IMG/VR virus record: IMGVR_UViG_3300025818_000017
From: a virus
Strand: one strand, 5' to 3'
Length of the DNA stretch: 64,000 nucleotides
Positions within the stretch are counted from its first letter, which is position 1, and each line of letters starts with the position of its first letter. Shown here one piece after another: positions 2,408-28,565 of the stretch. Under the pieces are notes generated by a model. It ran no database searches. It saw only the letters and a list, made by a program, of their open reading frames with translations, and was not told the origin of the DNA. Both the position numbers and the translations under genes were made by a program.

Positions 2408-2662
2408 ATGAAGATTGATTACACGCAAAAGCGTTTGACCACTCTACAGATTTATTACTATATGCCTGACCACCAATCGGTTATTCAGGAGTTTGTTTGG
2501 CAATACGAAGACCTAAAGCCAACTTTTCCACGAACACATAAGTTTCTACAACACTGGCACGAGAATATTGAGGCAGTTATCCAAGAAATATTACTTGCTC
2601 ATATCAACCGTTATGGACAACAACAAGTGAGAAAAGTTGATTGGTCAAAGGGATTATTTTAG
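2408..2662 (+). CDS. usg: Usg-family protein
   Basis: LTTLQIYYYMPDH..IQEFVWQYEDLKPTFP..HKFLQHW..IEAVI matches the recalled alphaproteobacterial Usg pattern (TTAEILYRMPDHP..QTYVWQDYD.AP.FP). Confidence 0.75.
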   Translation: MKIDYTQKRLTTLQIYYYMPDHQSVIQEFVWQYEDLKPTFPRTHKFLQHWHENIEAVIQEILLAHINRYGQQQVRKVDWSKGLF

Positions 2663-3583
2663 GTGTTCCCAAACAACACCCTTTTCCATTTCTTCGTTTA
2701 GCCACATAGAGTAAGATACATCATTGACCCACTGTTGCCTATCAAACAGTTCTGGGTCAAGCAATCTACTAATATCTTTATTGGCGACAGGATAAGCCCA
2801 ACACCTTTCATCATCTACGAATGTAGGAACCCCAGACAAAGCACTATCACAGGCAATCGTTGAGTTATAGGTGACGAGAGCATATGCTTTATTGATAGAT
2901 TCCAAAGGAGAAACCTCCTTATTTTCCTCAACCCTTATACCACGATAATCCTGTAATCCTTTCATTATCATACGAACCTGATTATCACTATTGGCTCTAT
3001 GCCGTCTTATGACAATGGGCATATCAGTTATACCCCGTATTTGTTTGACCTTATCTATACACCAATCTACCGTGGGCATGCCAGCCATAGACCAACCAGA
3101 GGATGTTTGGAGACACACCAGAATATACTCACCCTCTGTCTTCCACGGTTTTATACTACAATCGTTTCCTGTGTAATCTTCCAGCCATTTTTCCATCCAT
3201 TTCCATCTGTTTTCTGGGCTACCGCTGTTTCTAAAATCGCCAGTATAATATGGAGAACCATACCCACACCTCCAAAAAGCATTATTACCGTGAGAACGAA
3301 ACACACCGCCATCTATACAAATGACCTTTTCATAATAATCCAATATCTTCTGTCTGGCTTCCATACCTGTCTTTCCGCTGGTTTCATCAGTCCATTCCAG
3401 AGGTACGTAACCATATATTACCGCTACATCTGCTGGTATAGGTTCTGGTATATGACGCTTATTTTCCTGGTCAATAAGCAAGATTTCGTCACCATGAGCC
3501 TTGATTCCATTGGAAAATGCTAATAAAGTGGGATAACTTAGCTTTTTAGCGTTAGCAGTATTGAGAAAAATCGCTACTTTCAT
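2654..3583 (-). CDS. KpsS/KpsC-like GT-B glycosyltransferase paralogue 1
   Basis: LVCLQ, IRRH, LVTYNSTIACDSALSGVP and DRQQW..SYSMW..EEM..G motifs. Start moved to MKVAIF at 3583, 5 nt after TAAATA. Confidence 0.6.
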   Translation of the reverse strand: MKVAIFLNTANAKKLSYPTLLAFSNGIKAHGDEILLIDQENKRHIPEPIPADVAVIYGYVPLEWTDETSGKTGMEARQKILDYYEKVICIDGGVFRSHGNNAFWRCGYGSPYYTGDFRNSGSPENRWKWMEKWLEDYTGNDCSIKPWKTEGEYILVCLQTSSGWSMAGMPTVDWCIDKVKQIRGITDMPIVIRRHRANSDNQVRMIMKGLQDYRGIRVEENKEVSPLESINKAYALVTYNSTIACDSALSGVPTFVDDERCWAYPVANKDISRLLDPELFDRQQWVNDVSYSMWLNEEMEKGVVWEHLK

Positions 3584-3588
3584 AGTTT

Positions 3589-3601
3589 TATTTACTAAAT
3601 A
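3589..3601. promoter_or_regulatory. Back-to-back late-type promoters (TATTTA-C-TAAATA palindrome)
   Basis: Perfect inverted repeat; each TAAATA is 5 nt upstream of an ATG (3607 on +, 3583 on -). Resembles the T4 late consensus TATAAATA. Confidence 0.75.
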
Positions 3602-3606
3602 TCCAT

Positions 3607-5175: not shown

Positions 5176-5215
5176 CCATTTGCATAAATACCATATACAA
5201 TAGTAAAGGTGTATT

Positions 5216-7645: not shown

Positions 7646-7647
7646 AA

Positions 7648-8490: not shown

Positions 8491-8493
8491 AAG

Positions 8494-8520
8494 AAAAAGT
8501 GGCTTTTTAGCCACTTTTTT
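8494..8520. terminator. Bidirectional intrinsic terminator
   Basis: AAAAAGTGGCT-TTTT-AGCCACTTTTT hairpin with T-tracts on both strands, directly after a stop codon. Confidence 0.85.
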
Positions 8521-8531
8521 ATATTTTTATA

Positions 8532-8561
8532 TTGCAATGATAAATAAGAGTGCGTTATAAT
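8532..8561 (+). promoter_or_regulatory. sigma70-type promoter (TTGCAA-N18-TATAAT) with an embedded late TAAATA, upstream of the SSB gene
   Basis: TTGCAA 8532-8537, TATAAT 8556-8561, TAAATA 8541-8546. Confidence 0.65.
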
Positions 8562-8658
8562 AGTATCACAGTCGTTGAGATACTTGATTGACGATTAGGC
8601 AAAAAAGAAGACACCCTTGGGTGTCGTGGCATAATAGGCATAAAAAGGAGGCATAAAC

Positions 8659-10883: not shown

Positions 10884-10910
10884 ATAAATCCAAGTTGGGG
10901 AGAACACCAT

Positions 10911-14010: not shown

Positions 14011-14601
14011 TTACCACTTTCTACAACTCCAATAGCCAGCAGTTGTTTTGTCTTTTTTCTGATCACAGTTGTGTCTAGCACGGAAACTCTTACGGCGTTC
14101 TGGGTTATTTTTCTTGATTTTTACACCCTTCTGTCCGAAGTTGACCTTCTTTACATTGCCTGTCTTTGGGTCTTTTACATATACTTTGAACTTTTTCACA
14201 TCGCCAGCCATAGGCTTGTTTAGTTTTACTTTGCGACCTTGGTATTCAGCTTCCATAACATCTGTATCATAACCACTTTCTGCTAAGTGTGCTAAAACTG
14301 CTTCTTCTAGGCTTTCGTTTTTAGAACCTTTTTTACGGCAAGAACCTTTGCTGTATGCTTTCTTTCCAGGTACTGGTTCGTAACCATCCCAGCATCGACC
14401 TTCTTCTACTTTATCACCCCAAATCCATCCGTTGCCGTCGCATGTATCGCATTCTGCTTCGGTTGGATCGCCATCATAATGACCAGTTCCGTCACAATCA
14501 TAGCAAGTTATTTTTTCGTCTTCATCAAGTTCAATAACACTTTCATATACTTCTTCTTCAATGCGGTCAATGTTCTCTAAAAGTTTTCTAATATCACTCA
14601 T
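14011..14601 (-). CDS. Modular probable head protein: SDIRKLL leader, CxxCxGxG zinc finger, CWDGY module, DUF6321-like basic C-terminus
   Basis: CYDCDGTG..CDTCDGNG; CWDGYEPVPGKKAYSKGSC; KKVNFG..NPERRKSFRARHNC..TTAGYWSCRKW; SD AAGGA. Confidence 0.65.
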   Translation of the reverse strand: MSDIRKLLENIDRIEEEVYESVIELDEDEKITCYDCDGTGHYDGDPTEAECDTCDGNGWIWGDKVEEGRCWDGYEPVPGKKAYSKGSCRKKGSKNESLEEAVLAHLAESGYDTDVMEAEYQGRKVKLNKPMAGDVKKFKVYVKDPKTGNVKKVNFGQKGVKIKKNNPERRKSFRARHNCDQKKDKTTAGYWSCRKW

Positions 14602-15446
14602 ATATTTTCCTTTAATCTTTCCCAAACAATACCAGATGATATTTCATCAATGGTCCATTCGGTATAACTTATAGTATTTATCCAATCTTCACGATTTGGG
14701 TATACTGGGTCTTCTATTCTGTCCAGATTATCCAGCCCAAGCCCGACATCATAAGCAAGAGAATGAGGACTGACGAATACGGGTACGCCCGACATAACAG
14801 CAGTAATAGCAGGACCAGAGCTATGATTGACCACTGCCCAACATTTCGCCAATGCTGTTTCAAAATCGAAATCATCATATGTCCCTTCAATCTGTCGTGG
14901 TTTTGCGATAAGAACATTAGAAAACTCTTTTACATAGTCTGGGCTAACTGGAAACCTTGGATGTGGGCGAAGAATGATTCTTCTCTTACTATGCGCCCGT
15001 ATCTTACGGCATATACTTAGCATCCATTGGTCCATTGGCATCATACCTTTCCACTGTTCCGAAAGACCATGCTGACCGCATACAATAATATGTTCGCCAT
15101 CTTTTTTCCACGGTTTTAACGAAAGGTTATGGCGTGTTTCGCCATATGGTTCTATCCATGTTGCATCGCGGTTTATACCACCGATGCCTACTTTCCAAGT
15201 TTCATTTCTTTTTAGTGCCCCTACCTCAAGGACAATGACTGGCTTATTTTGTTCTTTATGTACATTCCAAATATATTGGTTATGTTTCATACGACCTGAC
15301 CATAGGACAGACCAAATAACAGCAATATCCCCGCCAATAGAGTCTACGATGAGATCGTAACCATCTCGCCGCAGTGCTTCCATAAACGCTTCCATTACAG
15401 GGCGTCCGGCCAAACTACAGAACTCAGGAAATACAGATATTTTCAT
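14598..15446 (-). CDS. KpsS/KpsC-like GT-B glycosyltransferase paralogue 2
   Basis: LRPHPR, VVNHSSGPAITAVMSGVP, YPNREDWI..SYTEW..EI..G; TATAAATA 5 nt before the ATG. Confidence 0.6.
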   Translation of the reverse strand: MKISVFPEFCSLAGRPVMEAFMEALRRDGYDLIVDSIGGDIAVIWSVLWSGRMKHNQYIWNVHKEQNKPVIVLEVGALKRNETWKVGIGGINRDATWIEPYGETRHNLSLKPWKKDGEHIIVCGQHGLSEQWKGMMPMDQWMLSICRKIRAHSKRRIILRPHPRFPVSPDYVKEFSNVLIAKPRQIEGTYDDFDFETALAKCWAVVNHSSGPAITAVMSGVPVFVSPHSLAYDVGLGLDNLDRIEDPVYPNREDWINTISYTEWTIDEISSGIVWERLKENI

Positions 15447-15450
15447 ATCG

Positions 15451-16080: not shown

Positions 16081-16836
16081 TTATTTTCCTACAAACAAGA
16101 AATCCCCATCATGTAAATGATGTAGTTTATCTACGGCATTCACACCACCAACAATACCAGCAACTTCTATCATTCTATTCTGTTCGCAATCGTAGTAATA
16201 GCATTTGAAATCACGCTGCATGAACCAGATGAAATAGTTATCAACGCCGTTCCCCGTCTTTTCTGCCCACGGTTTATAAATCTCTACCATAACATTTGGA
16301 CGCTCGTTTTCAATAAGGTTCTTTGCACCATATACCACATCCATTTCAAAACCTTCTACATCAATCTTGATAAACCCAACATCCTTATGTCCTTCACCAT
16401 CAAGGGAAACCATTGGAACCTTTCTTTCTTCTGACTCTACCAATGGAACTTGGCTAGTCATACTCAACCGACGAGTATCAATAAAGAGTGTGAGTTCACC
16501 TTCGTCTTTACTGACAGCAGCGTTACGAAAATCAACATTAGTCAAACCAAACTGACCGATGTTTTGTTTTTGAACTTCGTGTAGTTCTTTTACTGGTTCA
16601 TATGTAACAACATTCTTGGCGTGTTCGGCAAAGTATCGGCAATGGTAACCGCTATTACCACCAACATCAATAACTGTTTTATTTGGGTCAATATATTTGT
16701 CTAACTCTTTTAGGATGGAACTGGTGGTCAAACGGTTCCATAACTTTTCACGCCATCCACGCCTTTTCAAACTCTTTTCGCTAATCATTATTACCTCATC
16801 AAAATCTGTAGATTTACTCTGTTCTTTGTTTTGCAT
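16081..16836 (-). CDS. FkbM-family methyltransferase
   Basis: VIDVGGNSG, YEP, NAAVS, IKIDVEGFE.DV..GA, VMVE. Confidence 0.88.
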   Translation of the reverse strand: MQNKEQSKSTDFDEVIMISEKSLKRRGWREKLWNRLTTSSILKELDKYIDPNKTVIDVGGNSGYHCRYFAEHAKNVVTYEPVKELHEVQKQNIGQFGLTNVDFRNAAVSKDEGELTLFIDTRRLSMTSQVPLVESEERKVPMVSLDGEGHKDVGFIKIDVEGFEMDVVYGAKNLIENERPNVMVEIYKPWAEKTGNGVDNYFIWFMQRDFKCYYYDCEQNRMIEVAGIVGGVNAVDKLHHLHDGDFLFVGK

Positions 16837-17873: not shown

Positions 17874-18379
17874 TTCACTGCCTTCACGTGTAGATTTTTC
17901 TTAGAAGATTTCACCTGTTCAACATTACGAAACCCGTGTTTTTCAAGTGTGTCCTTCAATAATGGATAATCGTACCCTGTTTTATGAATATCCCAAATCT
18001 CTTGCTTTTCTGTTTCACGTTGCCATCCCCAGAAGCCAGCCAATGCCCATTCTTCATCGGTCATACCATTATTATTCATTGTTGTTTTGCGATCTGGGTT
18101 CATCCATTGCTGAATATGGAAAAGCATATCAGGGACAATCATTTCCATAACGCCATTCGGTTGAAGAACAGTTTTCCAAGCATTTAGCGTCCAAGTTGCT
18201 TGGGCAAAAGTAAGATGCTCAAAGAAATGTCGTGAGTAGATTGCTTCTACTGTTTGTGGTTCAACATACTTGTCTATTTCCCAAGCATTACATACATACT
18301 TCACATGCTTGAACTGACGAACATCAACACCTACATATCCTTTTGTAATCTTTGGTCCACAACCGAACTCAAGTTTCAT
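17870..18379 (-). CDS. SAM-dependent methyltransferase (type 11-like)
   Basis: KLEFGCG, GVDV, IYSRHFFEHL, LQPNG.MEMIVPD. Confidence 0.85.
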   Translation of the reverse strand: MKLEFGCGPKITKGYVGVDVRQFKHVKYVCNAWEIDKYVEPQTVEAIYSRHFFEHLTFAQATWTLNAWKTVLQPNGVMEMIVPDMLFHIQQWMNPDRKTTMNNNGMTDEEWALAGFWGWQRETEKQEIWDIHKTGYDYPLLKDTLEKHGFRNVEQVKSSKKNLHVKAVK

Positions 18380-19299
18380 TCTTCTTCTTTTTCCTTGTTG
18401 AATACGTTGTTATGTAAGTGTTTCCACGTTAAACCTTCACGCATTTCTTCTGGTGTCCATTGTGAATATGCAAGATTGTTCAATACATTTGTTCTGTCGG
18501 GTTTCGGTGGGTCATTGATATCTTCGATGCTGTGTCCTGATATTGGATAAACCATACTACCAGGATGCATAGCGATATGCGGGACGCCAGCCAGAACAGC
18601 GTCAATACCAGAACCGCTAGTGTATGTAACCATACAATGAGCATTCGCTAGGTCTTCTTCGAGTGTAGCTCCTTGTGAAATCATAATACGATCTTCATTG
18701 AAAAAGCGCCTTACATCCATATGCTTGGGCCAACGTTTTTCATCAGTCAACGGATGTAATCTAATCTTAATTTTCTTATCAGTCTTCTCCAAGATTTCTT
18801 CCAGAATGTTATTTGTCCACGTGTAATAGTCAAGACCAAACAAGCTTGCGTCATTCAAGAGTTGAAGGCCGAGTAATACATAATCACCTCCATCATTCCA
18901 AGGTTTGACTGTTAGACCTAGTTCATCAAATCTATCACTTGGGCAGTCATCACGCCAACCAAAGTCTCCTTCGTGTAACATAAAATGATCTACGCCGACA
19001 CGCCAATGACTATTTTTGGCTGGATGCGCTATTCTACCGAGCAGACAAGATTCCAAAAATATAACTGTTCCATTGTGGTATTTGAGAACTTCTTTCTTGA
19101 ACATATGATAATCTTTGGCATCCTTCTCTTCACGGCAACTACCAAAAATTACTGCGATATCTGACTTCTTATAAATAAAAGTGGGATCAAAAATAGGTAA
19201 GTAACCGTCGAACAGTTTTATACCTCTATAGAAATTATGCATAATTCTGGAATATTTTGAACGACCACCAGACGAGCCATATATGATTACTTTTTTCAT
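18376..19299 (-). CDS. KpsS/KpsC-like GT-B glycosyltransferase paralogue 3
   Basis: LLGLQLLND, IRLHPL, VTYTSGSGIDAVLAGVP, PDRT..NNLAYSQWT.EEM..G; start MKK at 19299, 5 nt after TAAATA. Confidence 0.62.
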   Translation of the reverse strand: MKKVIIYGSSGGRSKYSRIMHNFYRGIKLFDGYLPIFDPTFIYKKSDIAVIFGSCREEKDAKDYHMFKKEVLKYHNGTVIFLESCLLGRIAHPAKNSHWRVGVDHFMLHEGDFGWRDDCPSDRFDELGLTVKPWNDGGDYVLLGLQLLNDASLFGLDYYTWTNNILEEILEKTDKKIKIRLHPLTDEKRWPKHMDVRRFFNEDRIMISQGATLEEDLANAHCMVTYTSGSGIDAVLAGVPHIAMHPGSMVYPISGHSIEDINDPPKPDRTNVLNNLAYSQWTPEEMREGLTWKHLHNNVFNKEKEEE

Positions 19300-19323
19300 A
19301 AACATATTTATAAGGATTTTATA

Positions 19324-20130
19324 GTGGATACAGAAATAAAGAGAGTTCTAGATAAGGACAGAAAATATCAAAACCTAAAACGCCGTAAAGATAACTTAGT
19401 CAATGCGTTGCGGAACCCCCCAAACGAAGAGCAAAGAAGAGCGTGGGATGTAGAGTTAGCTACAGTAACCAAAGAGCATGATATTAGATTTTATAAACTT
19501 GGCGGTGGTCTTGGGAAAGGACCAAATAAAGCATTCTGTGATTTCCTTTCACGCCGTCTAAACAAGTTCAAGCCGCGATACCTAAAACTACTGGATACCG
19601 TGAAGGAGGTAAAGCCGCAAACCATTGTTGAAATCGGCACTTGGAAAGGTAAAACTGGTAAGGCACTTATCAACGAAGCACTACGCTACCAGAACCATGT
19701 TTCATATGTAGGTTATGACTTATTTGAGGACGCTACTAACACAAACGACCAAGAAGAATGGAATGGTAAAGCAGAATGTACCCTAAAAGAAACCGCCCGT
19801 GGCTTTGAGATTATGAAGCAAGGATGCGACCTAAACTTTGATTATAGATTGGTTCAAGGCAATACACTGGAAGTATTAGAAGACCACGCAGTAGATTTTG
19901 TTTGGCTTGACGGTGGGCATAGTATTGAAACTATCCGTAGTGACTTTGACCATGTAAAGAACTCCAAACTTGTAGTATTTGATGATTATTATGTCCCAGA
20001 GAAATACCCAGACCCGATTGATATTACCCAAGTTGGATGTAACGCTTTGGTAGCCGAACTTGATAATGTAGAAATATTTGTTCCTGATGGCGATTATGTT
20101 GGTATTGCTATTTGGAGAGGCAATCTATGA
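19324..20130 (+). CDS. SAM-dependent methyltransferase (Methyltransf_24-like) with helical N-terminus
   Basis: IVEIGTWKG, YVGYDLFE, FVWLDGGHS, VVFDDY. Confidence 0.8.
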   Translation: MDTEIKRVLDKDRKYQNLKRRKDNLVNALRNPPNEEQRRAWDVELATVTKEHDIRFYKLGGGLGKGPNKAFCDFLSRRLNKFKPRYLKLLDTVKEVKPQTIVEIGTWKGKTGKALINEALRYQNHVSYVGYDLFEDATNTNDQEEWNGKAECTLKETARGFEIMKQGCDLNFDYRLVQGNTLEVLEDHAVDFVWLDGGHSIETIRSDFDHVKNSKLVVFDDYYVPEKYPDPIDITQVGCNALVAELDNVEIFVPDGDYVGIAIWRGNL

Positions 20131-20966
20131 AATACGCATTAGTTACCACATTCGCCGCAAAGCACTATGACCTATACGGTAAGAATATGATTGAAACCTT
20201 CAACAAGCATTGGCCCCAAGATGTTGAAATCCATATCTATCACGAAGGTAATATCCCGCACCCTGTAGAAAGCCCACGATTATTCTATAAAGACCTTGAG
20301 GTAGAAAATCCTGACTTGGTTGCTTTCAAGACACGATGGAAGAATGATCCGGTAGCAAATGGTATGCCCAATAATCAAGGTATCCCAGGTGGTGTTCGCC
20401 GCCCAGAAACCATCAAAGACCGATGGAAAGAAAGCCCATCTTATCTTTGGGATGCTATTAGATTTTCACATAAGGTATATGCCCAAACGCACCTTGCGGC
20501 AAATACCGATGTCGATGTGATGTATTGGGTGGATGCCGACAGCATTACCTTTCGTGATGTTGGTGATGCTCATAAATCTTGGTTACCAGAAGGCATGTTC
20601 TGTTCGTATCTTGGTAGAAATACTTATACCGAATGTGGTTTCATTGCCTTCAATCTAAAACATCAATATAGTACTGAATATATGACGAGATACCGTGATA
20701 TGTATAATAAGGACGAGTTATTTAAGATGGGGCAATGGACTGATTGCCATGCTTTTGATAAGGTGAGGGTAGATATGGAAAATGAAGGCAAAATCAAAAA
20801 CCACAATCTGAATCCAACACTTATGAAAGGTCATCCATTTATCAATACTGAACTTGGTGATTATATGGACCATCTAAAAGGCAGACGTAAGGATGCGGGA
20901 CATTCACGCCCCGGTGAAAGACAAGACGCAAAAGGTGTGGATTACTGGAATAATATCAAAAAATGA
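20127..20966 (+). CDS. GT-A fold glycosyltransferase
   Basis: KVYAQ..MYWVDADS (DxD), ECGF..FNL, HLKG.RK. Confidence 0.7.
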   Translation: MKYALVTTFAAKHYDLYGKNMIETFNKHWPQDVEIHIYHEGNIPHPVESPRLFYKDLEVENPDLVAFKTRWKNDPVANGMPNNQGIPGGVRRPETIKDRWKESPSYLWDAIRFSHKVYAQTHLAANTDVDVMYWVDADSITFRDVGDAHKSWLPEGMFCSYLGRNTYTECGFIAFNLKHQYSTEYMTRYRDMYNKDELFKMGQWTDCHAFDKVRVDMENEGKIKNHNLNPTLMKGHPFINTELGDYMDHLKGRRKDAGHSRPGERQDAKGVDYWNNIKK

Positions 20967-21982
20967 AACTACAAGTAGAAATCTTTAGAGGAACAGCAAA
21001 GATTCGAAATGAAACCCCTATGAAACTAAACATAGGGATGAACCTTGAGCGTAAAAAGATTTTCAAACCAAGTGTTATAGTAGATGATATTTTTGAGGCA
21101 CTTGCTGAAGGTATGCTGAAGAATGGCGATGAACCTATTTGGAACAGACTACCTAAACGGGATTATCAACTACCAAAATATCGTCATGGTGTAATCTTTG
21201 GATATGGAAGAAGTTTATCTCCCGAACCAAAGGCAAAGGTCCAGAACTATCGTTACGAGGTGTTGGAACAGCAACGCAAGATGAAAGGACATACCGTTTG
21301 TTTTGACGGGGGTTATTTCAAGTCTCTGGGAAACTATGAATACTATCGTGTGGGTATTGATAGTCCTCTGGGGAATGGAACATTCTGTAATGAAAACTCC
21401 CCAGATGATAGATGGAAAAAGATTCAAGCAGAATATGGTGTGCCTTGGAATGATTGGCGACCGAACGCTGGTAAGTATGTGACTATCTTTATTCAGCCAG
21501 ACCCAGGGTTTTCTATGGGTGGTCAAAGCACACTAAAACTATTACAGGAATGGGTTCCTAAAATCCGTTCTCTAACTGATAAAGAAGTTGTAATCAAAGC
21601 ACACCCGAAATGCCACAAGCTAGGACAAATCACCACTGATATTTGGAAGTATGCCGAACAGAACAATGTCCGTATCTTTGATCATACTGTTCCAATCTAT
21701 CAGGTTCTAAAAGATACGAACCGAGCCGTCACTTGGAACTCCACAGTTGCTGTAGAAGCGGTTGCTTACGGTATTCCTACTATCTGTTTCCATGATTTCT
21801 GTATGGCGTGGGATGTTTGCGACCATACGCTTGACGCAATCGTAAATCCAACTATGCCCGATAGAACACAGTGGATTAATAATCTACATTATGGTTGCTG
21901 GACTTCACAGGAGCTTGCTACAGGGGAACTATGGTCTAAGTTGCGTGAAGAAATGATTAAGCGTGACGAGGCTAGAGCCTAG
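20963..21982 (+). CDS. KpsS/KpsC-like GT-B glycosyltransferase paralogue 4
   Basis: IFIQPD, IKAHPK, VTWNSTVAVEAVAYGIP, PDRTQWINNLHY..W..QEL..G. Confidence 0.65.
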   Translation: MKLQVEIFRGTAKIRNETPMKLNIGMNLERKKIFKPSVIVDDIFEALAEGMLKNGDEPIWNRLPKRDYQLPKYRHGVIFGYGRSLSPEPKAKVQNYRYEVLEQQRKMKGHTVCFDGGYFKSLGNYEYYRVGIDSPLGNGTFCNENSPDDRWKKIQAEYGVPWNDWRPNAGKYVTIFIQPDPGFSMGGQSTLKLLQEWVPKIRSLTDKEVVIKAHPKCHKLGQITTDIWKYAEQNNVRIFDHTVPIYQVLKDTNRAVTWNSTVAVEAVAYGIPTICFHDFCMAWDVCDHTLDAIVNPTMPDRTQWINNLHYGCWTSQELATGELWSKLREEMIKRDEARA

Positions 21983-22910
21983 CAATCTTATTATTATATT
22001 CAATCCGTGCTTGTGAAAGGTTTGATTCTGTTGCTTCTGGAACATACCCATAAACCTCTTGGAATCTTGGCTCAAGACCTTCTACCCAAGCTTGACCTGA
22101 ACGGATTTCTGCTGTATTCCACATATCATATGAAAGACTTCTAATCCATTCTTCGCGGTCTGGGTAGATGGGATTTTCAATATTTCTAAAATCTGTCTCG
22201 CATACTGGTGCCGCCGCATTTGTTGGATGAACGAAACAAGGAATACCCCGTAGAACACATTCGGGAGCAACACAACCGCTCAAAGAAATAACCGCAAAGA
22301 TACTATGATTATCTAAGTAGTTTGCTAATGTATCGCCTCTACCAGACCTTTCTTTGATACCTGGTTTAGACCTTAGAACAATATTTCTATCAGTATGTTC
22401 GCGCAAGAGTGCTATAGTATCTTGTTGCCAGGTACTGAGTTGCGATGGTAGAAGACTTTTCTGTTGTGTTTCTCTTGGAACGAACCCAGCCATAGTCTTA
22501 GTTGTCGGTGGGCAGATAAGAATATCTCTGCCACCTTTCTGCCACGGTTCCATCTTCAATCCCATCTTTTGGAACATTTTCCATCTATCATCTGGGCGTG
22601 GAATAACTGTATAGTTCTGGAAATCCATAACACTTAGGCGATGATATTCTTTTGGTCGTGGAACGAAGAAACCTGTATCAACATAGACAAATGGTTGTTT
22701 GCGTTCTTGGTAAAGGCGCATAGAACGGGTTGCCCACATACTTCTGCTACGAAAGATAGGCATAACATCTTCACGATACGCCATATCCTTTGGTCCACCA
22801 TCGTGGTTCTTATGTCCTATGTTGTAGATTTCGGCACCGATGGACTGTGAGAAAGCATCCATGATGCTGCTATTTGTTTTAGTCCCGTGTGTTATACAAA
22901 CTTTTTTCAT
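21972..22910 (-). CDS. KpsS/KpsC-like GT-B glycosyltransferase paralogue 5
   Basis: YVDTGFF, LRSKPG, ISLSG..APECVLRGIP, YPDREEWIRSLSYDMW..EI.SG; start re-called at MKKVCI. Confidence 0.58.
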   Translation of the reverse strand: MKKVCITHGTKTNSSIMDAFSQSIGAEIYNIGHKNHDGGPKDMAYREDVMPIFRSRSMWATRSMRLYQERKQPFVYVDTGFFVPRPKEYHRLSVMDFQNYTVIPRPDDRWKMFQKMGLKMEPWQKGGRDILICPPTTKTMAGFVPRETQQKSLLPSQLSTWQQDTIALLREHTDRNIVLRSKPGIKERSGRGDTLANYLDNHSIFAVISLSGCVAPECVLRGIPCFVHPTNAAAPVCETDFRNIENPIYPDREEWIRSLSYDMWNTAEIRSGQAWVEGLEPRFQEVYGYVPEATESNLSQARIEYNNKIARL

Positions 22911-23454
22911 TGATAAAGAACTTTCCTGTCTGGGCAATCCAGTTTTTCTTGTTTTTCCCAGAAACATCTTTTGGTAATGACCGTAGAACACTTGTAATCT
23001 TTTCATCATAAGCAAACCCATAATGAGCAAACTTATCAACCCAATATTCGTGTGGTTTACAGTTCACGTGGTGATGCCCTTCGTGTCCAGGCAATGCGGC
23101 TGTACAAATAACATACTTACACTGTTGGAAGATGCTGAAATAGTTATCCATATATTCTTCGTAAACGTGTTCCAAAAACTCTACACTCCAAGCCAAATCT
23201 CGTGGCTCAATCTCATACGGACCTTTGGTAAAATCGTGGATAATGACTTCAATATTTCTTTCTACGGTCCAATCGCCGTCAATACCTATAGCATCTAGAC
23301 CACGCTCTCTAGCAAGTTCTACCATTCCAGCGGGACCACAACCAACGTCGATCATGGTCTTGATATCAAATGTTTCAATGAGGTAGTCTAGTGCTACGGG
23401 GAATAAGTGTGTCTTTCCGGCGTGACCACCTAAATGTTCTGGTAAATCATTCAT
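22879..23454 (-). CDS. SAM-dependent methyltransferase
   Basis: MIDVGCGPAG, GIDG, HDFT, SVEFLEHV, HHVNC. Confidence 0.85.
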   Translation of the reverse strand: MNDLPEHLGGHAGKTHLFPVALDYLIETFDIKTMIDVGCGPAGMVELARERGLDAIGIDGDWTVERNIEVIIHDFTKGPYEIEPRDLAWSVEFLEHVYEEYMDNYFSIFQQCKYVICTAALPGHEGHHHVNCKPHEYWVDKFAHYGFAYDEKITSVLRSLPKDVSGKNKKNWIAQTGKFFINEKSLYNTRD

Positions 23455-23516
23455 AGATGTATTTAGGTGTCGGATTTTTTGATGAAAAACTTCTCAACAA
23501 TGTTGGTAAATATGAT

Positions 23517-24431
23517 ATGAATATTGTAATCTTTACGGAAATGAGTGGTGTTGAAAAGGCCCGTAATCTAAAAAATATGGTTGAATCCGGAGGCGACAAG
23601 TTTATGGAGATTTCCATAAATGATGAAAATGACTTTGATTTTGTTATTCAATCTGGTATGGAAAAACCAAAGAAGAAGCACGAAGATAGAAATGCGATTT
23701 TGCAGAAGATTAAAAGTATGGGAAAATCGATACTTGTACTTGACGGTCCTGCTATCCGATTGATAAGCGATGGCTGGGATTATAAGAACATAGAAGGCCA
23801 GTGGGTAAAAATGGCGTGGCATAGTTTTTTTGCTGACGAAGCAGTTTTTCCATATGACCCCAGCTATAATAGATGGAAAGAACTACAAAAGGAACACGAT
23901 ATAAACGTCAATGAATGGAAACATAGGGGAGATCATATTCTCGTATGTTTACAGAAACGTTATGATGCAGCAGTAAAAAGAATATATGACAATGGCGATA
24001 CGTATATTGGTTATATCTCTGATGTCGTAGAGCAACTAAAGAAAAAAACGGACAGACCCATACTTATAAGGTCACATCCAACCGATAAGAGTGTGGGTGA
24101 TTTACTACGACAAAAATTACCTTATGTAAAAATTAGTACCAACGATAATCTTTATGATGACTTCAATATGACACACACGATGGTTACATACAACAGTCAT
24201 AGTGCAGTAGAAGCAGTACTTTATGGTTTGCCGACTGTTACGCTGGATAGCAGTGCTATTGCTTGGGATGTATCTGGTAAAAAGGTAACAGATATTTGTA
24301 ATGCTCCGCAACCAGATAGAACAGAATGGCTAAAAAGACTTGCTTTTATGCAATGGAGCGTGAAAGAATTGAATGATGGTTATGTTTGGAACTTACTAAA
24401 GAAATGTCTGACCGAACACAGTGGTAAATAA
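23517..24431 (+). CDS. KpsS/KpsC-like GT-B glycosyltransferase paralogue 6
   Basis: LVCLQKRYD, IRSHPT, VTYNSHSAVEAVLYGLP, PDRTEWL..LAF.QW..EL..G; start MNIVIF 4 nt after TAAATA. Confidence 0.65.
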   Translation: MNIVIFTEMSGVEKARNLKNMVESGGDKFMEISINDENDFDFVIQSGMEKPKKKHEDRNAILQKIKSMGKSILVLDGPAIRLISDGWDYKNIEGQWVKMAWHSFFADEAVFPYDPSYNRWKELQKEHDINVNEWKHRGDHILVCLQKRYDAAVKRIYDNGDTYIGYISDVVEQLKKKTDRPILIRSHPTDKSVGDLLRQKLPYVKISTNDNLYDDFNMTHTMVTYNSHSAVEAVLYGLPTVTLDSSAIAWDVSGKKVTDICNAPQPDRTEWLKRLAFMQWSVKELNDGYVWNLLKKCLTEHSGK

Positions 24432-24435
24432 ACTC

Positions 24436-25260
24436 ATGAAAATATTGTTTCTAAATGATACATCCCACGTTCATTCTGGTTGTGTAAAAGTTGTTGAGTT
24501 CTTTATGAAACAGTTTGAAGGACACGATGTAGATATTCTTCCACGCAAGACCATCATAGAAGATACGAGCCAGTATGACCTTATCGTTGCTAATGGTGAA
24601 GGAACCATGCACGATGATGCGAAACGGGCATATGAAATAATGAATATCCTTGCTTCTGCTAAATGTAAAACGATGATTGTGAATAGCGTGTGGCAGAATA
24701 ACTCACCCGAACTTACCGAAATGTTGATGGAAGTGGATTATGTAGCAGTTAGAGAAGTCCTTTCCAAGCGTGAAATATTATCTGTTATTGATAGACCCGT
24801 GGATATATATCTTGATTTCAGTTATTTTCATGATGTTCCTGAAACCCCAATAGAAGTAAAGCACGGTCTTGTTACTGGTAATCGTATGGGGTCCATAAAG
24901 GATAAACCAAAAGTTAGTGGTATTGGTGAGAAGCATACCGTGGATATTTTCACACAGTCTTGGGATGAGTTGGTACAACAACTTCGCCAACACCGGATAT
25001 TGGTTACTGGACGGCACCACGAGTTATATGCGGCGTGTAAGGCGAAATGTAACTTTGTTATACTGGAAGGAAACACTCATAAAAACTCTGGTCTATTTGA
25101 GACAGCGGGACTACAAATACCTTGTCTTCATGTGGATGCGACAATAGAAGAAATACAGCAAGCAGTGGATGATGTTGGTATGTATCAGTTATACCAACAA
25201 GAACTGTTGTTTGACTATATGAGAAAGCAGAAGCCGCCGAGGTTACTGGATTATGCGTGA
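24436..25260 (+). CDS. Polysaccharide pyruvyl transferase-like protein
   Basis: H.GC, NGEGTMH, VAVRE..S, DFS, LVTGRHH pattern. Confidence 0.7.
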   Translation: MKILFLNDTSHVHSGCVKVVEFFMKQFEGHDVDILPRKTIIEDTSQYDLIVANGEGTMHDDAKRAYEIMNILASAKCKTMIVNSVWQNNSPELTEMLMEVDYVAVREVLSKREILSVIDRPVDIYLDFSYFHDVPETPIEVKHGLVTGNRMGSIKDKPKVSGIGEKHTVDIFTQSWDELVQQLRQHRILVTGRHHELYAACKAKCNFVILEGNTHKNSGLFETAGLQIPCLHVDATIEEIQQAVDDVGMYQLYQQELLFDYMRKQKPPRLLDYA

Positions 25261-25915
25261 ATGGTTTGCTGGTAAAAGTGTTTGTATTGTTGGTGGTGCC
25301 CAAGCTTTATTTGACCAAGCACTTGGCGAAGAAATAGATAGTTATGATGTCGTGTGCCGACTAAATGGTGGTGCGGAGATAGTAAAGCCTGAAAGCCAAG
25401 GAACCAGAAATGATGTATGGGGTATTGGTAAATGGTGGACCGTTGACCATCTATTTGCGAAATGTTCGTGGGGTAAAGCTATTCATCTTTCGCCCAAAGG
25501 TGAATATATGCGATATTGTAGCACTTGCGGTGATATATATCGTAAAGGGATGAAAAAATGGTATGTGGAAACTGACGAAGTTCATCCCGTTTATGATATT
25601 GTAATGCCCAAAACTGTATATCAGCAAATGGGCGAACTATATGTAAAAAATACCGACGAAAAAAAGGTTAAGTATTCACACATGAATAGTGATATGAAGG
25701 CACCAAGAAAGGTAATAAAGGCAAGCACTGGTTTGTTGATGGCTTACTACACATCAATCAACCTTCCAAAATCTATAACACTTTACGGGTTTGATTGGAA
25801 GCGAACCCCAACCTGGTATTTTGATGAAAAAGAGTATAATAAGGCACACCAACCCCACGATTGGGAATGGGAAGAATGGTTTATAAAAGAAGTGCTTGAT
25901 GTGAGAATAAAGTAG
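25253..25915 (+). CDS. GT29 (sialyl/ulosonyl-transferase)-like protein
   Basis: L-motif-like KSVCIVGG..EIDSYDVVCRLN..G.RND; S-motif-like ASTGL; ITLYGFD; H.W..E. Confidence 0.65.
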   Translation: MREWFAGKSVCIVGGAQALFDQALGEEIDSYDVVCRLNGGAEIVKPESQGTRNDVWGIGKWWTVDHLFAKCSWGKAIHLSPKGEYMRYCSTCGDIYRKGMKKWYVETDEVHPVYDIVMPKTVYQQMGELYVKNTDEKKVKYSHMNSDMKAPRKVIKASTGLLMAYYTSINLPKSITLYGFDWKRTPTWYFDEKEYNKAHQPHDWEWEEWFIKEVLDVRIK

Positions 25916-25922
25916 GTACGAT

Positions 25923-26144
25923 ATGGAAATTGAAACATTTAGAAATATACACACAATTACAGATACTCTAGAAAGCCGTTTCAGAGAATTTGATTATTGT
26001 ATACCGATGTGTTCCGACGAAGGATTTTTTCTTGAATTCGGTGTATGGAAAGCATTAAATGAGTGGATACAAGAGTGTGATAGAGAGGTGCAACCCTTAT
26101 GGCGAACCACTCAGTATTCAGCAGGGGTTAAAGTACTACGATGA
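25923..26144 (+). pseudogene. Probable internally deleted TylF-like methyltransferase remnant
   Basis: SAM motif I FLEFGVWK is followed at once by a C-terminal-like KALNEW segment; only 73 aa. Confidence 0.4.
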
Positions 26145-26680
26145 TTATTGAGAGATTGGAAAATTATAATAGGCACGATATTATTAACCTATTAGATGGT
26201 AATAATATTCTAGGTGTTGAACTTGGTATAGCGGCTGGTATATTTTCCGAGAGAATGTTGTCCACTGGTAAATTTGCTAGTTATGTTGGTGTTGATATGT
26301 ATACGGATCGTGGGCATGATATTGAAGAATACAAAACAGCTATTCGAAGAAACGGAATTTTTTCAAACTACAAGATATTGAAAATGTCTTTTGACGATGC
26401 CTTAGATTTATTTGATGACGAAAGCATCGATTTTCTATATATTGATGGATATGCACATACGGGGCAGAATGATGGGAAAACCTTATCTGATTGGTATCCT
26501 AAAGTCAAAACTGGTGGTCTTTTTGCTGGTGATGACTACAATAAAAAGAAATGGCCCAAAGTAGTGAAGGAAGTAAATGCCTTTCTTGAAACACATGGGT
26601 ATGATAAAGTATATATCACTGATACGAGGGAGAAAACTAGTTATTGTAAACATCCAAGTTGGGCTGTGAAGAAGAAATGA
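26141..26680 (+). CDS. SAM-dependent methyltransferase (Methyltransf_24-like)
   Basis: GVELGIAAG, GVD, IDFLYIDGYAH, KVKTGGLFAGDDY. Confidence 0.88.
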   Translation: MIIERLENYNRHDIINLLDGNNILGVELGIAAGIFSERMLSTGKFASYVGVDMYTDRGHDIEEYKTAIRRNGIFSNYKILKMSFDDALDLFDDESIDFLYIDGYAHTGQNDGKTLSDWYPKVKTGGLFAGDDYNKKKWPKVVKEVNAFLETHGYDKVYITDTREKTSYCKHPSWAVKKK

Positions 26681-27669
26681 ACAAAATATTTTGGTTTGAA
26701 GAATGGGGCGAAGGTTTTAAGTCTTATCCGTTTCCAACAAAAGCACCATTTGAAAAAGTTTCCTTTTATGATGAGGAAAAATTGAAAGAAGCAGATGCAT
26801 TCGTTCAAATTGATATTAAACCACGAAGACCAAATGAACACAGAAGAAATCAATTCTTTGATTACATCAGTAGTACTGGGAAACCGAAGTTGGTTTTTGA
26901 AAGTCATATATTCAGACAAGTAATATTGACGCAGCATTACTGTAGATTTGCGTGGAACAGTTACTTTAATAATGTGGGTTATTTTGGTAAACTTCGTAAC
27001 AACCCCGATAGATGGAAAAAGTTTATAGAGGAAGAAGAGATAGACATAAGAGAACCGACACAGAAGAAAGGTGACTACATACTGATTCTGACACAACCGA
27101 CATATGGAAGTTGTCTTAACGATCTATTTGATTTATATGCGGATACCGCTAGAACCGATGCACTACATTATGACAGAGTATATGCGAAGTGGTTGCATCG
27201 TTTGATACAATATATCCAGCAGTATTCTGAGCTTCCTATCATTATCAGAAAACATCCAGCACAGAGAGATATTAAATTCTTTGATATAAAATACTTTGAC
27301 AATGTTTATTATTCTGAAGACTCCAAAGGTATAAAGATAAAATACGCGAATTTATATATTAGATCGGGGGGAAAAGCTTTAACGGAAGAGATTCTAAACT
27401 CACAAGCGGTTGTTAGTTGGAATAGTACTGGATTGGTTGAGGCAGTCTGCTTGGGTATACCAACTTTTCCTCTTTCACCTTCGTCCCAATGTTATCCCGT
27501 TGGTTTCAGAGATTTGCACGATATCGATGCGATACATAGGAAAAAATATCCGAAACGTGATGAATGGTTTAATAATATGGCTTACTGTCAATGGACAGAC
27601 AAGGAAGTTATGCGCGGAACAGCTTTCCGATTTATAAATGACGGGTATAAATCTTTTTTAGGATACTAG
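26677..27669 (+). CDS. KpsS/KpsC-like GT-B glycosyltransferase paralogue 7
   Basis: LILTQ, IRKHPA, VSWNSTGLVEAVCLGIP, RDEWFNNMAYCQWT..EV..G. Confidence 0.62.
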   Translation: MNKIFWFEEWGEGFKSYPFPTKAPFEKVSFYDEEKLKEADAFVQIDIKPRRPNEHRRNQFFDYISSTGKPKLVFESHIFRQVILTQHYCRFAWNSYFNNVGYFGKLRNNPDRWKKFIEEEEIDIREPTQKKGDYILILTQPTYGSCLNDLFDLYADTARTDALHYDRVYAKWLHRLIQYIQQYSELPIIIRKHPAQRDIKFFDIKYFDNVYYSEDSKGIKIKYANLYIRSGGKALTEEILNSQAVVSWNSTGLVEAVCLGIPTFPLSPSSQCYPVGFRDLHDIDAIHRKKYPKRDEWFNNMAYCQWTDKEVMRGTAFRFINDGYKSFLGY

Positions 27670-27698
27670 TTGACGTAACCATAAAAGAATGATATAAT
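27670..27698 (+). promoter_or_regulatory. sigma70-type promoter TTGACG-N17-TATAAT
   Basis: Near consensus with extended TG; ATG 27705 lies 6 nt after the -10. Confidence 0.75.
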
Positions 27699-27704
27699 CA
27701 CTGT

Positions 27705-28565
27705 ATGACCGAACTGAATATATATGTACCCAGAAACAAAGAAGACAGTAAATGCTGGCAAGTCTTCAATCCATTTATGTTGGGTTGGGATGATGAAACT
27801 CACGTTGAGTATGATTATGTTCAGCACGGCGGCATTAGTATGTTTTGGGGCTTGGTCGGTAAAAACTCAGAAATGATAAAGAAACACGAGGCTGAGTTCA
27901 GACCGTATCTCTTTTCGGATATGCCATACTTTGGTAGATGGTCTGGTCTAAAGGAAGCACTTGACCCCGATAGTGATTTCTATTGGCGCATATGTCCAAA
28001 CAGAATGCATTCACACTTTCAAAAAACTGAAGCACAAACACTTTCTTCCGATAGGTTTGATAGACACAATACCCCCATCAAAGAAAAGAAGAAAAGAGGG
28101 CACGAGATTATTCTGTGTCCAAGTTCAGAAAGCGTGACGAGACACCTATGTAACTGTAGCGTAGAAACTTGGATAAACGATACAACGGCAGCAATAAGAG
28201 AGTATACAGACCGTCCTATTCGTGTTCGTCATAAACCAAGACGAAACGGAACATCGGGACCAGCCGCCGCTCTTATCCCGTTTGCCGAAGATATAAAAGA
28301 TGCGTGGTGTGTGATAACTCTTATTAGTATGAGTGGTACGGAAGCATTACTAAATGGTGTCCCTATGATGGAGACAGAACATATAAACGGGTACAGTAAC
28401 TTTCGTTTTCAGCCCGATAAAATAGAAAGCGTAGAGTGGTCTGGGTATGGAACACAAGTTCTTATGAACTGGCTTGCCTACCAACAGTTCACACCAAAAG
28501 AAATGTATACAGGCGAAGCATTAGCAATCCTAAAAGAAACTAATCCATACTTCTTTAGCGAATGA
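27705..28565 (+). CDS. KpsS/KpsC-like GT-B glycosyltransferase paralogue 8
   Basis: SDMPYF, VRHKPR, ITLISMSGTEALLNGVP, WLAYQQFT..EM.TG. Confidence 0.58.
   Translation: MTELNIYVPRNKEDSKCWQVFNPFMLGWDDETHVEYDYVQHGGISMFWGLVGKNSEMIKKHEAEFRPYLFSDMPYFGRWSGLKEALDPDSDFYWRICPNRMHSHFQKTEAQTLSSDRFDRHNTPIKEKKKRGHEIILCPSSESVTRHLCNCSVETWINDTTAAIREYTDRPIRVRHKPRRNGTSGPAAALIPFAEDIKDAWCVITLISMSGTEALLNGVPMMETEHINGYSNFRFQPDKIESVEWSGYGTQVLMNWLAYQQFTPKEMYTGEALAILKETNPYFFSE

Follow-up and report, generated by a model that had tools for sequence, protein, structure and literature searches.

A 90.5-kb record from an uncultured giant bacteriophage carries eight intact homologous genes whose products, about 280 to 340 residues each, are deduced, with a probability of roughly 70%, to be soluble two-domain GT-B-type transferases with the Kdo-transferase fold that jointly build an acidic, decorated glycan. 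The fold and the nucleotide-binding motifs are common to this family and to KpsC/KpsS, WbbB, and KrkA, and the phage probably makes its own decorated sugar chain. The window was the whole stretch of 64,000 nucleotides analyzed, and the genes concerned are listed in Table 1.

Eight homologous genes and their relatives

The first-pass annotation had proposed eight paralogues, and this number was confirmed by the intact ORFs found at all eight places, by full-length alignment, by BLASTP, and by a profile search. Identity in the full-length alignment was 19 to 29%. In an all-against-all BLASTP comparison, every copy matched four or more of the others at E values of ≤4e-7; the top pair gave 2e-35, and the most divergent and weakest copy, 27705, reached 1e-11. 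A profile of the eight copies searched against the whole 90.5-kb record returned the same eight places and no others, the two "internal stops" that it reported being the stop codons of the genes themselves. Two unannotated neighbors compared by hhalign as candidates for a ninth copy did not belong to the family.

Table 1. Family copies and neighboring genes in the window
Feature	Coordinates	Strand	Motifs or supporting data
Paralogue 1 (2654)	ORF 2654-3625; probable gene 2654..3583	-	Class II; QTSSGWSM, RRHR; ORF begins GTG 3625, probable start ATG 3583 (309 aa)
Paralogue 2 (14598)	ORF 14598-15485; probable gene 14598..15446	-	Class III; QHGLSEQW, RPHPR; ORF begins TTG 15485, probable start ATG 15446
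Sulfotransferase	15451..16080	-	PF03567, 35.8 vs cut-off 22
FkbM-type methyltransferase	16081..16836	-	Homologue in 34/86 loci; frequent family partner in other phages
Paralogue 3 (18376)	18376..19305	-	Class I; QLLND (QxxxD), RLHP
Methyltransferase	19324..20130	+	Methyltransf_24
GT-A glycosyltransferase (conserved partner 1)	20112..20966	+	284 aa; invariant W-M-D-A-D, read as DxD
Paralogue 4 (20963)	20963..21982	+	Class II; QPDPGFSM, KAHP; structure modeled
Paralogue 5 (21972)	ORF 21972-23039; probable gene 21972..22910	-	Class IV; no Gln, RSKP; ORF begins TTG 23039, probable start ATG 22910
Possible methyltransferase	22879..23454	-	Weak Pfam matches under cut-off
Paralogue 6 (23457)	23457..24431	+	Class I; QKRYD (Q166/D170), RSHP; alternative start ATG 23517
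Polysaccharide pyruvyl transferase	24421..25260	+	PF04230, 26.8 vs cut-off 25.3
GT29 (sialyltransferase)-like protein	25253..25915	+	PF00777, 39 bits vs cut-off 23
Methyltransferase	26141..26680	+	Methyltransf_24; weaker TylF O-methyltransferase match just under cut-off
Paralogue 7 (26677)	ORF 26659-27669; gene 26677..27669	+	Gln and RKHP; Gly at Q+4 (QPTYG)
Paralogue 8 (27705)	27705..28565	+	Class IV; no Gln, RHKP; structure modeled
GT8-like glycosyltransferase (conserved partner 2)	28555..29304	-	35% identity, E 3e-43, to N-terminal half of P0043
KdsA, 3-deoxy-8-phosphooctulonate (Kdo-8-phosphate) synthase	30447..31262	+	NF003543, 389.8 bits vs 242; TIGR01362, 369 vs 314
Small cupin protein	31700..32041	+	Frequent family neighbor elsewhere (30/86 loci)

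The earlier positions stood as places, while two of the starts, 23517 and 26677, were found to be internal ATGs of longer ORFs. For the latter gene, the product expected from ATG 26677 has the length of P0058 (330 aa), which lies 0.11 changes per column from it in the tree. The lone copy at 2654 and the terminase gene (3607-5175) are divergently oriented, in the head-to-head arrangement described before; the apparent overlap of the two disappears because the probable start is the internal ATG, and the resulting protein is identical to a database entry of the same length, P0001. The start of copy 20963 overlaps the stop codon of the upstream GT-A gene (ATGA).

The family comprises 5,839 cluster representatives, and its best-sampled subfamily is almost exclusively found in phages. 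Other large phage records hold two to six copies each, and at least two copies were present in 85 of 86 related loci. Each of the eight copies was closer to genes of other phages than to any sibling, and the eight are therefore old, specialized enzymes rather than recent duplicates. This does not fit one of the two evolutionary readings put forward earlier, diversifying selection, when taken as acting on recent duplicates, and fits the other, stepwise assembly by specialized enzymes.

Fold of the family proteins

AlphaFold models were obtained for a typical copy (20963, pLDDT 86.7) and for the most divergent one (27705, pLDDT 90.3). The top Foldseek matches of the 20963 model were KpsC, KrkA, and WbbB. 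An exhaustive VIA structure search of 48,161 chains, independent of Foldseek, placed the same four structures first for both models, namely, the two KpsC modules (GT107), WbbB (GT99), and KrkA (GT140), all of which are retaining β-Kdo transferases. For 20963, the Z scores were 14.1 for both KpsC 2,4 and KpsC 2,7, 13.8 for WbbB, and 13.0 for KrkA, with the next GT-B enzyme at only 10.7; for 27705, they were 11.1 and 10.4 for KpsC, 9.6 for WbbB, and 8.1 for KrkA, with all others at ≤7.7. Both models thus match GT-B-type Kdo transferases best.

Motif classes

The ordered motifs previously described for the eight copies were all kept in a formal alignment and across 199 family sequences. With residues numbered as in copy 20963, the Gln following the hydrophobic strand was present in 172 of the 199, R212 in 190, H214 in 166, P215 in 175, S260 in 189, G270 in all 199, and P272 in 196, while the C-terminal motif comprised D300 (133/199), R301 (168/199), W304 (166/199), Y310 (154/199), W313 (173/199), E317 (195/199), and G321 (197/199). 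The substitution of KP for HP in 21972 and 27705 and of HR in 2654 was also as first read. What that reading had missed was that just two of the eight copies have the Asp of QxxxD and that the KP copies have lost the Gln as well.

The defining motifs of retaining β-Kdo transferases were taken from PMC12887879: in QxxxD, the Gln binds the Kdo carboxylate and the Asp, absolutely conserved in GT99, GT107, and GT140, is the covalent nucleophile, while (K/R)xHP binds CMP and is common also to sialyltransferase families. By these motifs the eight copies form four classes. QxxxD and RxHP occur together in 18376, which has the complete retaining-Kdo-transferase signature, and in 23457, where Q166 and D170 are both invariant across the class-I alignment. 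Gln and His are kept without the Asp in four copies: 20963; 14598, with Gln and HP but no Asp at Q+4; 2654, with His retained and Arg in place of Pro; and 26677, which adjoins the class-I sequences in the tree. Both Gln and His are missing from the two KP copies. The CMP-binding motif is RxHP or KxHP in five copies, RRHR in one, and RxKP in two. The conserved Ser, phosphate binding in Kdo transferases, is present in all eight, and the acidic residue, ribose binding in Kdo transferases, is present in seven, with Thr instead in 14598. QxxxD, which typifies the three characterized families, is lacking in six of the eight copies (four with Gln but no Asp and two with neither), and most of the eight may not be rightly called "Kdo transferases."

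It could be argued that only the two QxxxD copies are active, the other six being catalytically dead and serving a complex as scaffolds, to bind acceptors, or to regulate chain length, as the six lack a nucleophile that is absolutely conserved in three characterized families and two of them also lack Gln and His. This was considered quite improbable. Family wide, QxxxD was found in 83 of the 199 sequences, and the classes without the Asp, which make up more than half, show strong conservation of motifs of their own in the corresponding position (QrxxGWSMxG, QxxxSxqW, and RxKPR/SMxGxEA). Ser and G.P are kept in all classes and Arg-x-His-Pro in classes I to III. Such conservation suggests that a functional nucleotide-sugar site is under selection.

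Relation to known Kdo transferases

A resemblance of the HP and NST..EA..G.P elements to the Rossmann domain of GT107/GT99 had been suggested, and it was supported by the models and by the class-I profile, which matched KpsC (6mgd) at an E value of 9e-4 with QxxxD, HP, and S..E..G.P aligned. The Q..D of class I falls on QVESD in KpsC, QVEDD (D232) in WbbB, and QTFND (D160) in the N-terminal module of E. coli KpsC; HP falls on HP, and S..(D/E)..G.P falls on the matching KpsC and WbbB residues. This is the best value obtained, and the likeness to the solved Kdo transferases is marginal at the level of sequence; the eight-copy profile found nothing among them. Matches to PF05159 (Capsule_synth; cut-off 20 bits) were limited to the C-terminal domain and were weak in three copies, of which one exceeded the cut-off (20963, 25.4; 18376, 19.9; 23457, 18.1); the other five gave no match. 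The best score against PF20471 (DUF6716, putative glycosyltransferase; cut-off 27 bits) was 26.6, from 20963, and a database homologue, P0042, carries this domain. TIGR04396 and NF046086 matched the family weakly. The link to GT107/GT99 holds for fold and motifs and not for actual membership: judged by their sequences, the eight proteins belong to neither and form a separate, largely phage-borne family.

KpsC/KpsS (GT107, PF05159) are retaining β-Kdo transferases responsible for the poly-Kdo linker in group 2/3 capsules. As the best structural match of both models, they share with the phage proteins a reduced GT-B architecture, the aligned RxHP, Ser, and acidic residue, and in class I a consensus of QxPxDASL compared to QVESDASI in KpsC. 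They are likewise soluble or peripheral, act in multienzyme glycan assembly, and occur as tandem or fused modules. They differ in that the phage-borne family has its own C-terminal DR..W...Y..W...E...G motif, has only marginal sequence similarity, lacks the nucleophilic Asp in 6/8 copies, and is accompanied by no lipid acceptor or kps export genes.

The N-terminal module of WbbB (GT99), a retaining β-Kdo transferase that caps an O-antigen, aligns with the class-I profile at Q228xxxD232, H265-P, and NSS..E, and members of the phage family too occur fused to other glycosyltransferase modules; however, the sequence match was insignificant (E 0.12), and the WbbB N-terminal domain is much larger and elaborated. 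The N-terminal module of KrkA (GT140; PMC12887879), which acts as the retaining Kdo transferase for the E. coli K13 capsule, is a precedent for deeply divergent families with a common fold, QxxxD, and HP, and is also part of a bifunctional glycan synthase. It has no detectable sequence similarity to the phage family and carries Ser at the K/R position of (K/R)xHP, where the phage family keeps Arg. Moreover, the Asp and Gln are absolutely conserved in KrkA homologues, whereas in the phage family they define one class only.

Neighboring genes and the nature of the donor

The best-sampled subfamily usually occurs as clusters of two to six copies with GT-A and GT8-like partners. Homologues of the GT-A partner, which had no Pfam match, were found in 71/86 loci, and homologues of the GT8-like partner were found in 80/86. 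Elsewhere, the conserved order is a GT8-like gene, family copies, FkbM, a family copy, a GT-A gene, and a family copy. The family domain is also found joined to GT8, GT25, and GT-D/TPR modules, including 577-aa proteins in which a GT8-like domain is fused to a family member; P0043 carries PF01501. The member in Pelagibacter phage Mosig is surrounded by the same mix of sulfotransferase, methyltransferases, and glycosyltransferases, and that in Caulobacter phage CcrColossus comes after a large tail protein and a sialyltransferase-like gene. Cultured phages carry members under the annotation "hypothetical protein."

KdsA is encoded 1.9 kb from the last family copy. No KdsB, KdsD-type SIS protein, NeuB, or CMP-sugar synthetase was found in the record, which covers about 25% of the genome. 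Since KdsA and KdsB were absent from five other large records with two to six family copies, and only 1/86 loci had KdsA at a distance of 10 kb or less from the family, the Kdo link is local to this phage and not general. Large lytic aquatic phages with cell-wall/LPS islands are comparable in their many sugar genes, including Kdo synthesis, and in the surface modification proposed for them; cyanophage S-SCSM2R has 13 glycosyltransferases with kdsA and kdsB. Such reports (e.g., PMC12801897) do not include this family, its fold, or its motif classes.

The absence of KdsA and KdsB from those five records would also suit enzymes that transfer, in place of Kdo, CMP-activated acidic sugars of nine carbons (sialic, pseudaminic, or legionaminic acid or Kdn), with KdsA there for a different reason, e.g., to aid LPS synthesis in the host. 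The same can be said of the GT29-like gene inside the island, GT29 enzymes using CMP-sugar donors, and of the sialyltransferase-like gene beside the CcrColossus member. The (K/R)xHP motif is shared with sialyltransferases, and a related retaining pseudaminic acid transferase, KpsS1, is mentioned with KrkA (PMC12887879). These donors were nevertheless deemed unlikely. KdsA is the sole sugar-acid synthesis gene present, no NeuB-type or CMP-activating enzyme accompanies it, and the four best structural matches are all Kdo enzymes, with polysialyltransferase 5wc6 lower (Z of 9.8 for 20963 and 6.2 for 27705). No sequence match to sialyltransferases (GT38, GT52, GT80, and similar) was found.

Proposed mechanism and acceptor

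We infer the donor sugar, the chemistry of each class, the joint action, and the acceptor as follows. The C-terminal Rossmann domain would bind an acidic keto-sugar activated with CMP, CMP-Kdo being the most likely, with the CMP held by RxHP, the conserved Ser, and the acidic residue and the sugar carboxylate by the conserved Gln. In class I, attack on the sugar by the QxxxD Asp would give a covalent enzyme-sugar adduct, from which an acceptor hydroxyl would displace the enzyme with net retention, as in KpsC, WbbB, and KrkA. This route would be closed to the four copies with Gln and His that lack the Asp, which probably either proceed by direct displacement, with the opposite anomer as the product, or take another CMP-sugar. 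For the two KP copies, a different donor or a nonstandard role is probable. KdsA would boost the supply of Kdo, with the remaining CMP-Kdo pathway coming from the host. The eight copies and the GT-A, GT8-like, GT29-like, methyl-, sulfo-, and pyruvyl-transferases are proposed to act sequentially in the cytoplasm, since no hydrophobic segment was found in any island protein; nor was a membrane or export protein found alongside the island. The glycan so made would be branched, acidic, and decorated.

The island lies among replication and nucleotide-metabolism genes and encodes only soluble proteins, and the T4 α- and β-glucosyltransferases (AGT and BGT), GT-B enzymes that glycosylate phage DNA, were weak structural matches of the 27705 model (Z of 7.0 for BGT and 6.6 for AGT). 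Glycosylation of hypermodified bases in the phage DNA, rather than of protein or lipid, was therefore weighed and judged highly improbable. The DNA glucosyltransferases scored well under the Kdo transferases, and the sulfo-, pyruvyl-, and O-methyl-transferases, the GT8- and GT29-like genes, and KdsA point to a polysaccharide. Furthermore, a DNA modification requiring at least 11 glycosyltransferases is not known to us.

A virion protein was rated the likeliest acceptor of the polysaccharide, at about 45%, ahead of a lipid or glycan of the host envelope (about 35%) and other targets (about 20%). Mycobacteriophages have glycosyltransferases that glycosylate virions. No candidate acceptor, such as a Ser/Thr-rich fiber protein, was found within the window. 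It is proposed only tentatively, and with some doubt, that this is a new phage glycosyltransferase family with retaining and Asp-less lineages on one scaffold, and that giant aquatic phages combine up to eight members with GT-A, GT8, and decorating enzymes to make, within the cytoplasm, a phage-specific acidic coat containing Kdo on their virion proteins. If true, such a coat would be the phage equivalent of the glycan coats that giant eukaryotic viruses make for themselves.

Significance

To our knowledge, few retaining Kdo transferases have been characterized, all from bacterial capsule or O-antigen pathways, and this family would extend them by thousands of relatives, most of them phage-borne. 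Its natural variants without the catalytic Asp would provide a ready series for how one scaffold switches mechanism, linkage, or donor. The question can be tested in the cultured carriers, CcrColossus and its relatives and Pelagibacter phage Mosig. The findings suggest that lytic jumbo phages, pelagiphages, and Caulobacter phages assemble complex glycans. A glycan placed on the virion would affect recognition, adsorption, or decay resistance of aquatic phages; one placed on the host surface would amount to a form of superinfection exclusion.

Eight intact paralogues of separate, ancient descent

The first-pass annotation had claimed eight divergent paralogues of a KpsS/KpsC-like transferase family, and all eight ORFs, named here by their coordinates, were found to be present and intact. 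Their shared homology was borne out by an end-to-end alignment at 19-29% identity and by all-against-all BLASTP, in which each copy had four or more partners at E <= 4e-7 (top pair, 2e-35). A profile of the eight matched exactly eight places in the whole record, and no ninth copy was found when two unannotated neighbours were compared by hhalign, both being unrelated. Alignment with database proteins indicated likely shorter true starts for four copies, at 3583, 15446, 22910, and 26677. The isolated 2654 copy does lie beside the terminase gene, the two being divergent, as had been noted. It is convergent with a gene whose 783-residue product has a LysM domain and transglycosylase/endolysin-like matches; the 3' ends of the two genes lie 259 bases apart.

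The ordered motifs proposed earlier were kept in a formal alignment, both among the eight copies and in the 199 family sequences formed by adding 191 representatives from the database. The Gln was present in 172 of the 199, the Arg in 190, the His in 166, the Pro in 175, and the Ser in 189; the G.P motif retained its Gly in 199 and its Pro in 196, and the C-terminal D/R/W/Y/W/E/G residues were each found in 133-197. The variants described at the HP site, KP in 21972 and 27705 and HR in 2654, were likewise observed.

In the 199-sequence tree, built with FastTree and weakly resolved at many deep branches so that coarse statements alone are safe, the motif classes were strongly clustered (13 changes versus 88 with shuffled labels), class IV formed a single group, and every window copy was nearer to outside sequences than to any sibling, the nearest sibling ranking 9th to 110th. 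Since even the nearest outside relatives were only ~46-49% identical for the copies with a tree-reported value (14598, 18376, and 20963), the eight were deduced to be ancient, separately maintained lineages. Two explanations had been offered for so many paralogues. The sibling ranks argue against recent duplication under diversifying selection, while stepwise glycan assembly fits, ancient separate lineages being what distinct specificities in one pathway would look like.

Fold and family assignment

Pfam and NCBIfam matches were weak and limited to the C-terminal domain, and were to capsule and surface-carbohydrate families. PF05159 was matched by one copy above the cut-off and by two just below it, PF20471, TIGR04396, and NF046086 were also matched weakly, and none of the eight copies had a match in PHROGs. 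Structure was more informative. The AlphaFold model of 20963 (pLDDT 86.7, pTM 0.86) gave KpsC, KrkA, and WbbB as the top ranks in Foldseek. An exhaustive comparison with 48,161 chains, independent of Foldseek, gave the KpsC beta-2,4 domain first (Z 14.1, 253 residues aligned), followed by KpsC beta-2,7 (Z 14.1), WbbB (Z 13.8), and KrkA (Z 13.0), versus Z 10.7 for the best generic GT-B enzyme. The model of 27705, the most divergent copy (pLDDT 90.3), returned the same four in identical order as its sole matches at Z >= 8. The top ranks of both models thus single out the retaining beta-Kdo transferases, in all three of their families with characterised structures (GT107, GT99, and GT140), and nothing else, which upholds the earlier suggestion of a GT-B fold with a GT107/GT99-like Rossmann domain.

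Catalytic motifs define four classes

In the KrkA study, the retaining beta-Kdo transferases were defined as a class by a QxxxD motif, in which the Gln binds the Kdo carboxylate and the Asp is the absolutely conserved covalent nucleophile, together with a (K/R)xHP CMP-binding motif (PMC12887879). In the family alignment QxxxD was found in 83 sequences, 78 of which also kept the His, and four motif classes could be distinguished (see table). Against PDB sequences, no Kdo enzyme was found with the eight-copy profile, a 47-sequence profile reached WbbB and KpsC only at E 0.2-1.4, and the 79-sequence class-I profile, in which Q166 and D170 are invariant, was the only one to reach significance, matching KpsC (6mgd) at E = 9e-4. 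Its Q..D aligned with QVESD of the 6mgd KpsC module, with QVEDD (D232) of WbbB, and with QTFND (D160) of E. coli KpsC-N, while its HP fell on HP and its S..(D/E)..G.P on the equivalent residues of KpsC and WbbB. On every sequence test applied, copies 18376 and 23457 have the character of retaining Kdo transferases. The other six of the eight lack the nucleophile; because the motifs that replace it are strongly conserved, the sequences argue for altered rather than lost function in the classes without Asp.

A probable glycan island and its proposed link to Kdo

Seven copies lie within 14.6-28.6 kb. Alongside them are encoded one sulfotransferase and one pyruvyl transferase, three methyltransferases (with a weaker candidate for a fourth), a GT29-like protein, and two partner proteins, GT-A-like and GT8-like. 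The most economical interpretation is an assembly line in the cytoplasm, which would produce an acidic glycan with methyl, sulfate, and pyruvate substituents; at least the class-I enzymes would add Kdo or a related CMP-activated sugar acid to it. No membrane-spanning segment was predicted in any island protein, and no flippase, polymerase, ABC exporter, or initiating phosphoglycosyl transferase was found in the island.

A gene for KdsA (Kdo-8-phosphate synthase) lies close by. No kdsB, kdsD-type SIS isomerase, or neuB was found in the 90.5-kb record, outside which about three quarters of the genome lies. Both kdsA and kdsB were absent from five other family-bearing records, so the link to Kdo rests on the fold, the motifs, and one KdsA adjacency. 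A search for a Ser/Thr-rich acceptor near any copy gave no candidate, the maximum being 38% in a 40-residue stretch.

The two partners were the most constant neighbours of the family, the GT-A-like gene being found in 71 and the GT8-like gene in 80 of 86 loci; neither product had a Pfam match. The GT8-like protein shared 35% identity with the GT8 half of fusion proteins of 577 residues, the other half of which is a family member. For the GT-A-like protein, a Maf/MptE-like assignment was considered and set aside, since the invariant WMDAD motif indicates a DxD enzyme of the GT-A type. In further fusions the family domain is joined to GT25 or to GT-D/TPR modules; three such database proteins of 773-1,143 residues (P0148, P0205, and P0158), carrying TPR repeats/GT-D-like modules or GT25, may hold clues to acceptors.

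Several other genes in or near the island were recorded. For the 220-residue GT29-like protein, the match is to the C-terminal portion of GT29 sialyltransferases of the eukaryote type (39 bits versus a Pfam cut-off of 23), an unusual family in a bacteriophage. A 204-residue protein with below-cut-off matches to DUF5754 and to zinc-binding Anti-TRAP ends the minus-strand part of the island. A gene for a small CBM60-like carbohydrate-binding protein adjoins one for a 636-residue protein with two hydrophobic segments and no family match, the only membrane-like protein near the island. A radical SAM protein is encoded just past the island.

Features of the window and motif classes of the family copies
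Feature	Position	Strand	Detail
Class I copies	18376, 23457		QxPxDASL with RpHP
Class II copies	2654 (HR), 20963, loosely 26659		QrxxGWSMxG with HP
Class III copy	14598		QxxxSxqW with RpHPR
Class IV copies	21972, 27705		without Gln; RxKPR, SMxGxEA
LysM protein	44-2395	+	
Large terminase subunit	3607-5175		T4-type
Octamer ATAAATAC (examples)	5183-5191, 50803-50811		
DUF5754/Anti-TRAP-like protein	14011-14625	-	
GT-A-like partner	20112-20966	+	
GT29-like protein	25253-25915	+	
GT8-like partner	28555-29304	-	
KdsA	30447-31262	+	390 bits versus cut-off 242; 1.9 kb beyond island copies
CBM60-like protein	32920-33321	+	
Membrane-like protein	33313-35223	-	
Radical SAM protein	36370-37410	+	
Maximum Ser/Thr content	54555-54920		

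Phage setting and distribution of the family

The window corresponds to bases 2948-66947 of a linear 90.5-kb IMG/VR virus record. As its completeness is ~25% (CheckV), the full genome is probably in the 300-400 kb range. The terminase large subunit was 53% identical to that of the Pseudomonas jumbo phage PA5oct and showed 43-51% identity to its counterparts in other phages of 350-470 kb. Also encoded are a single-strand-binding protein, a RecA/UvsX-like protein, helicases, ribonucleotide reductase, a sigma-70 region-4 protein, and a tail-spike-like protein. The source is a jumbo phage whose host is Gram-negative. The first 20 kb gave no megablast match among 50,697 phage records, and related-locus searches with single copies as query found no close relatives. 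The T4-type late promoter TATAAATA was not enriched (7 found versus 5.3 expected). The octamer ATAAATAC was enriched upstream of genes, 8 of its 10 occurrences lying at most 80 bases before an ORF start, and by its placement may be a promoter element.

Among 1.84 billion sequences, the family profile matched 5,839 cluster representatives at E <= 1e-3, of which 1,277 also reached E <= 1e-30; none has an informative name. One subfamily alone had more than 595 matching stretches in IMG/VR; 185,579 prokaryote species, represented by one genome each, yielded only four contigs: a SAR11 single-cell genome (Pelagibacterales SAG-MED31, L081) and three MAG contigs. The MAG contigs are short, and L082 and L084 are archaeal. 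These few "cellular" matches may stem from phage DNA in infected cells or from errors in binning.

A count of paralogues in other phages, as the first-pass annotation had advised, gave two to six copies in each of five other large records. At least two copies lay within 10 kb in 85 of the 86 fetched loci, with a conserved order of GT8-like gene, two to four family copies, FkbM methyltransferase, family copy, GT-A, family copy, and cupin. Matches of 1,357 bases in many related loci were considered as insertions and rejected, being two adjacent paralogues joined by tblastn.

Members in cultured phages, all annotated "hypothetical protein," were found in giant Caulobacter phages, among them CcrColossus, CcrBL9, and their relatives, and, as Mosig_00185, in Pelagibacter phage Mosig; another lies in the uncultured Caudoviricetes record MW202713, in a stretch annotated as a putative pyridoxal-phosphate-dependent enzyme. 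The gene for the CcrColossus member (gp128; hhalign probability, 99.8%) comes after those for a tail protein of 1,666 residues and a sialyltransferase-like protein (gp126), to which the GT29-like protein of the window showed no significant similarity by BLAST. The Mosig member is surrounded by genes for two methyltransferases, one sulfotransferase, and two glycosyltransferases, a combination also present in the window. Three tblastn searches found no member in the nearest cultured terminase relatives of the window phage, from which the island is deduced to be accessory.

Relation to known Kdo transferases

Numerous glycosyltransferases together with kdsA/kdsB have already been reported in large phages (PMC12801897). 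No paper on the present family was found in the literature. The window is a rich example of it, with the most copies in the sample examined and all four classes present. The family looks functionally similar to KpsC, WbbB, and KrkA but by sequence is a member of none of their families, since the similarity is barely detectable and most members lack the defining Asp. By CAZy practice, and by analogy with KrkA for GT140, a member, once characterised, would probably become the founder of a new CAZy family.
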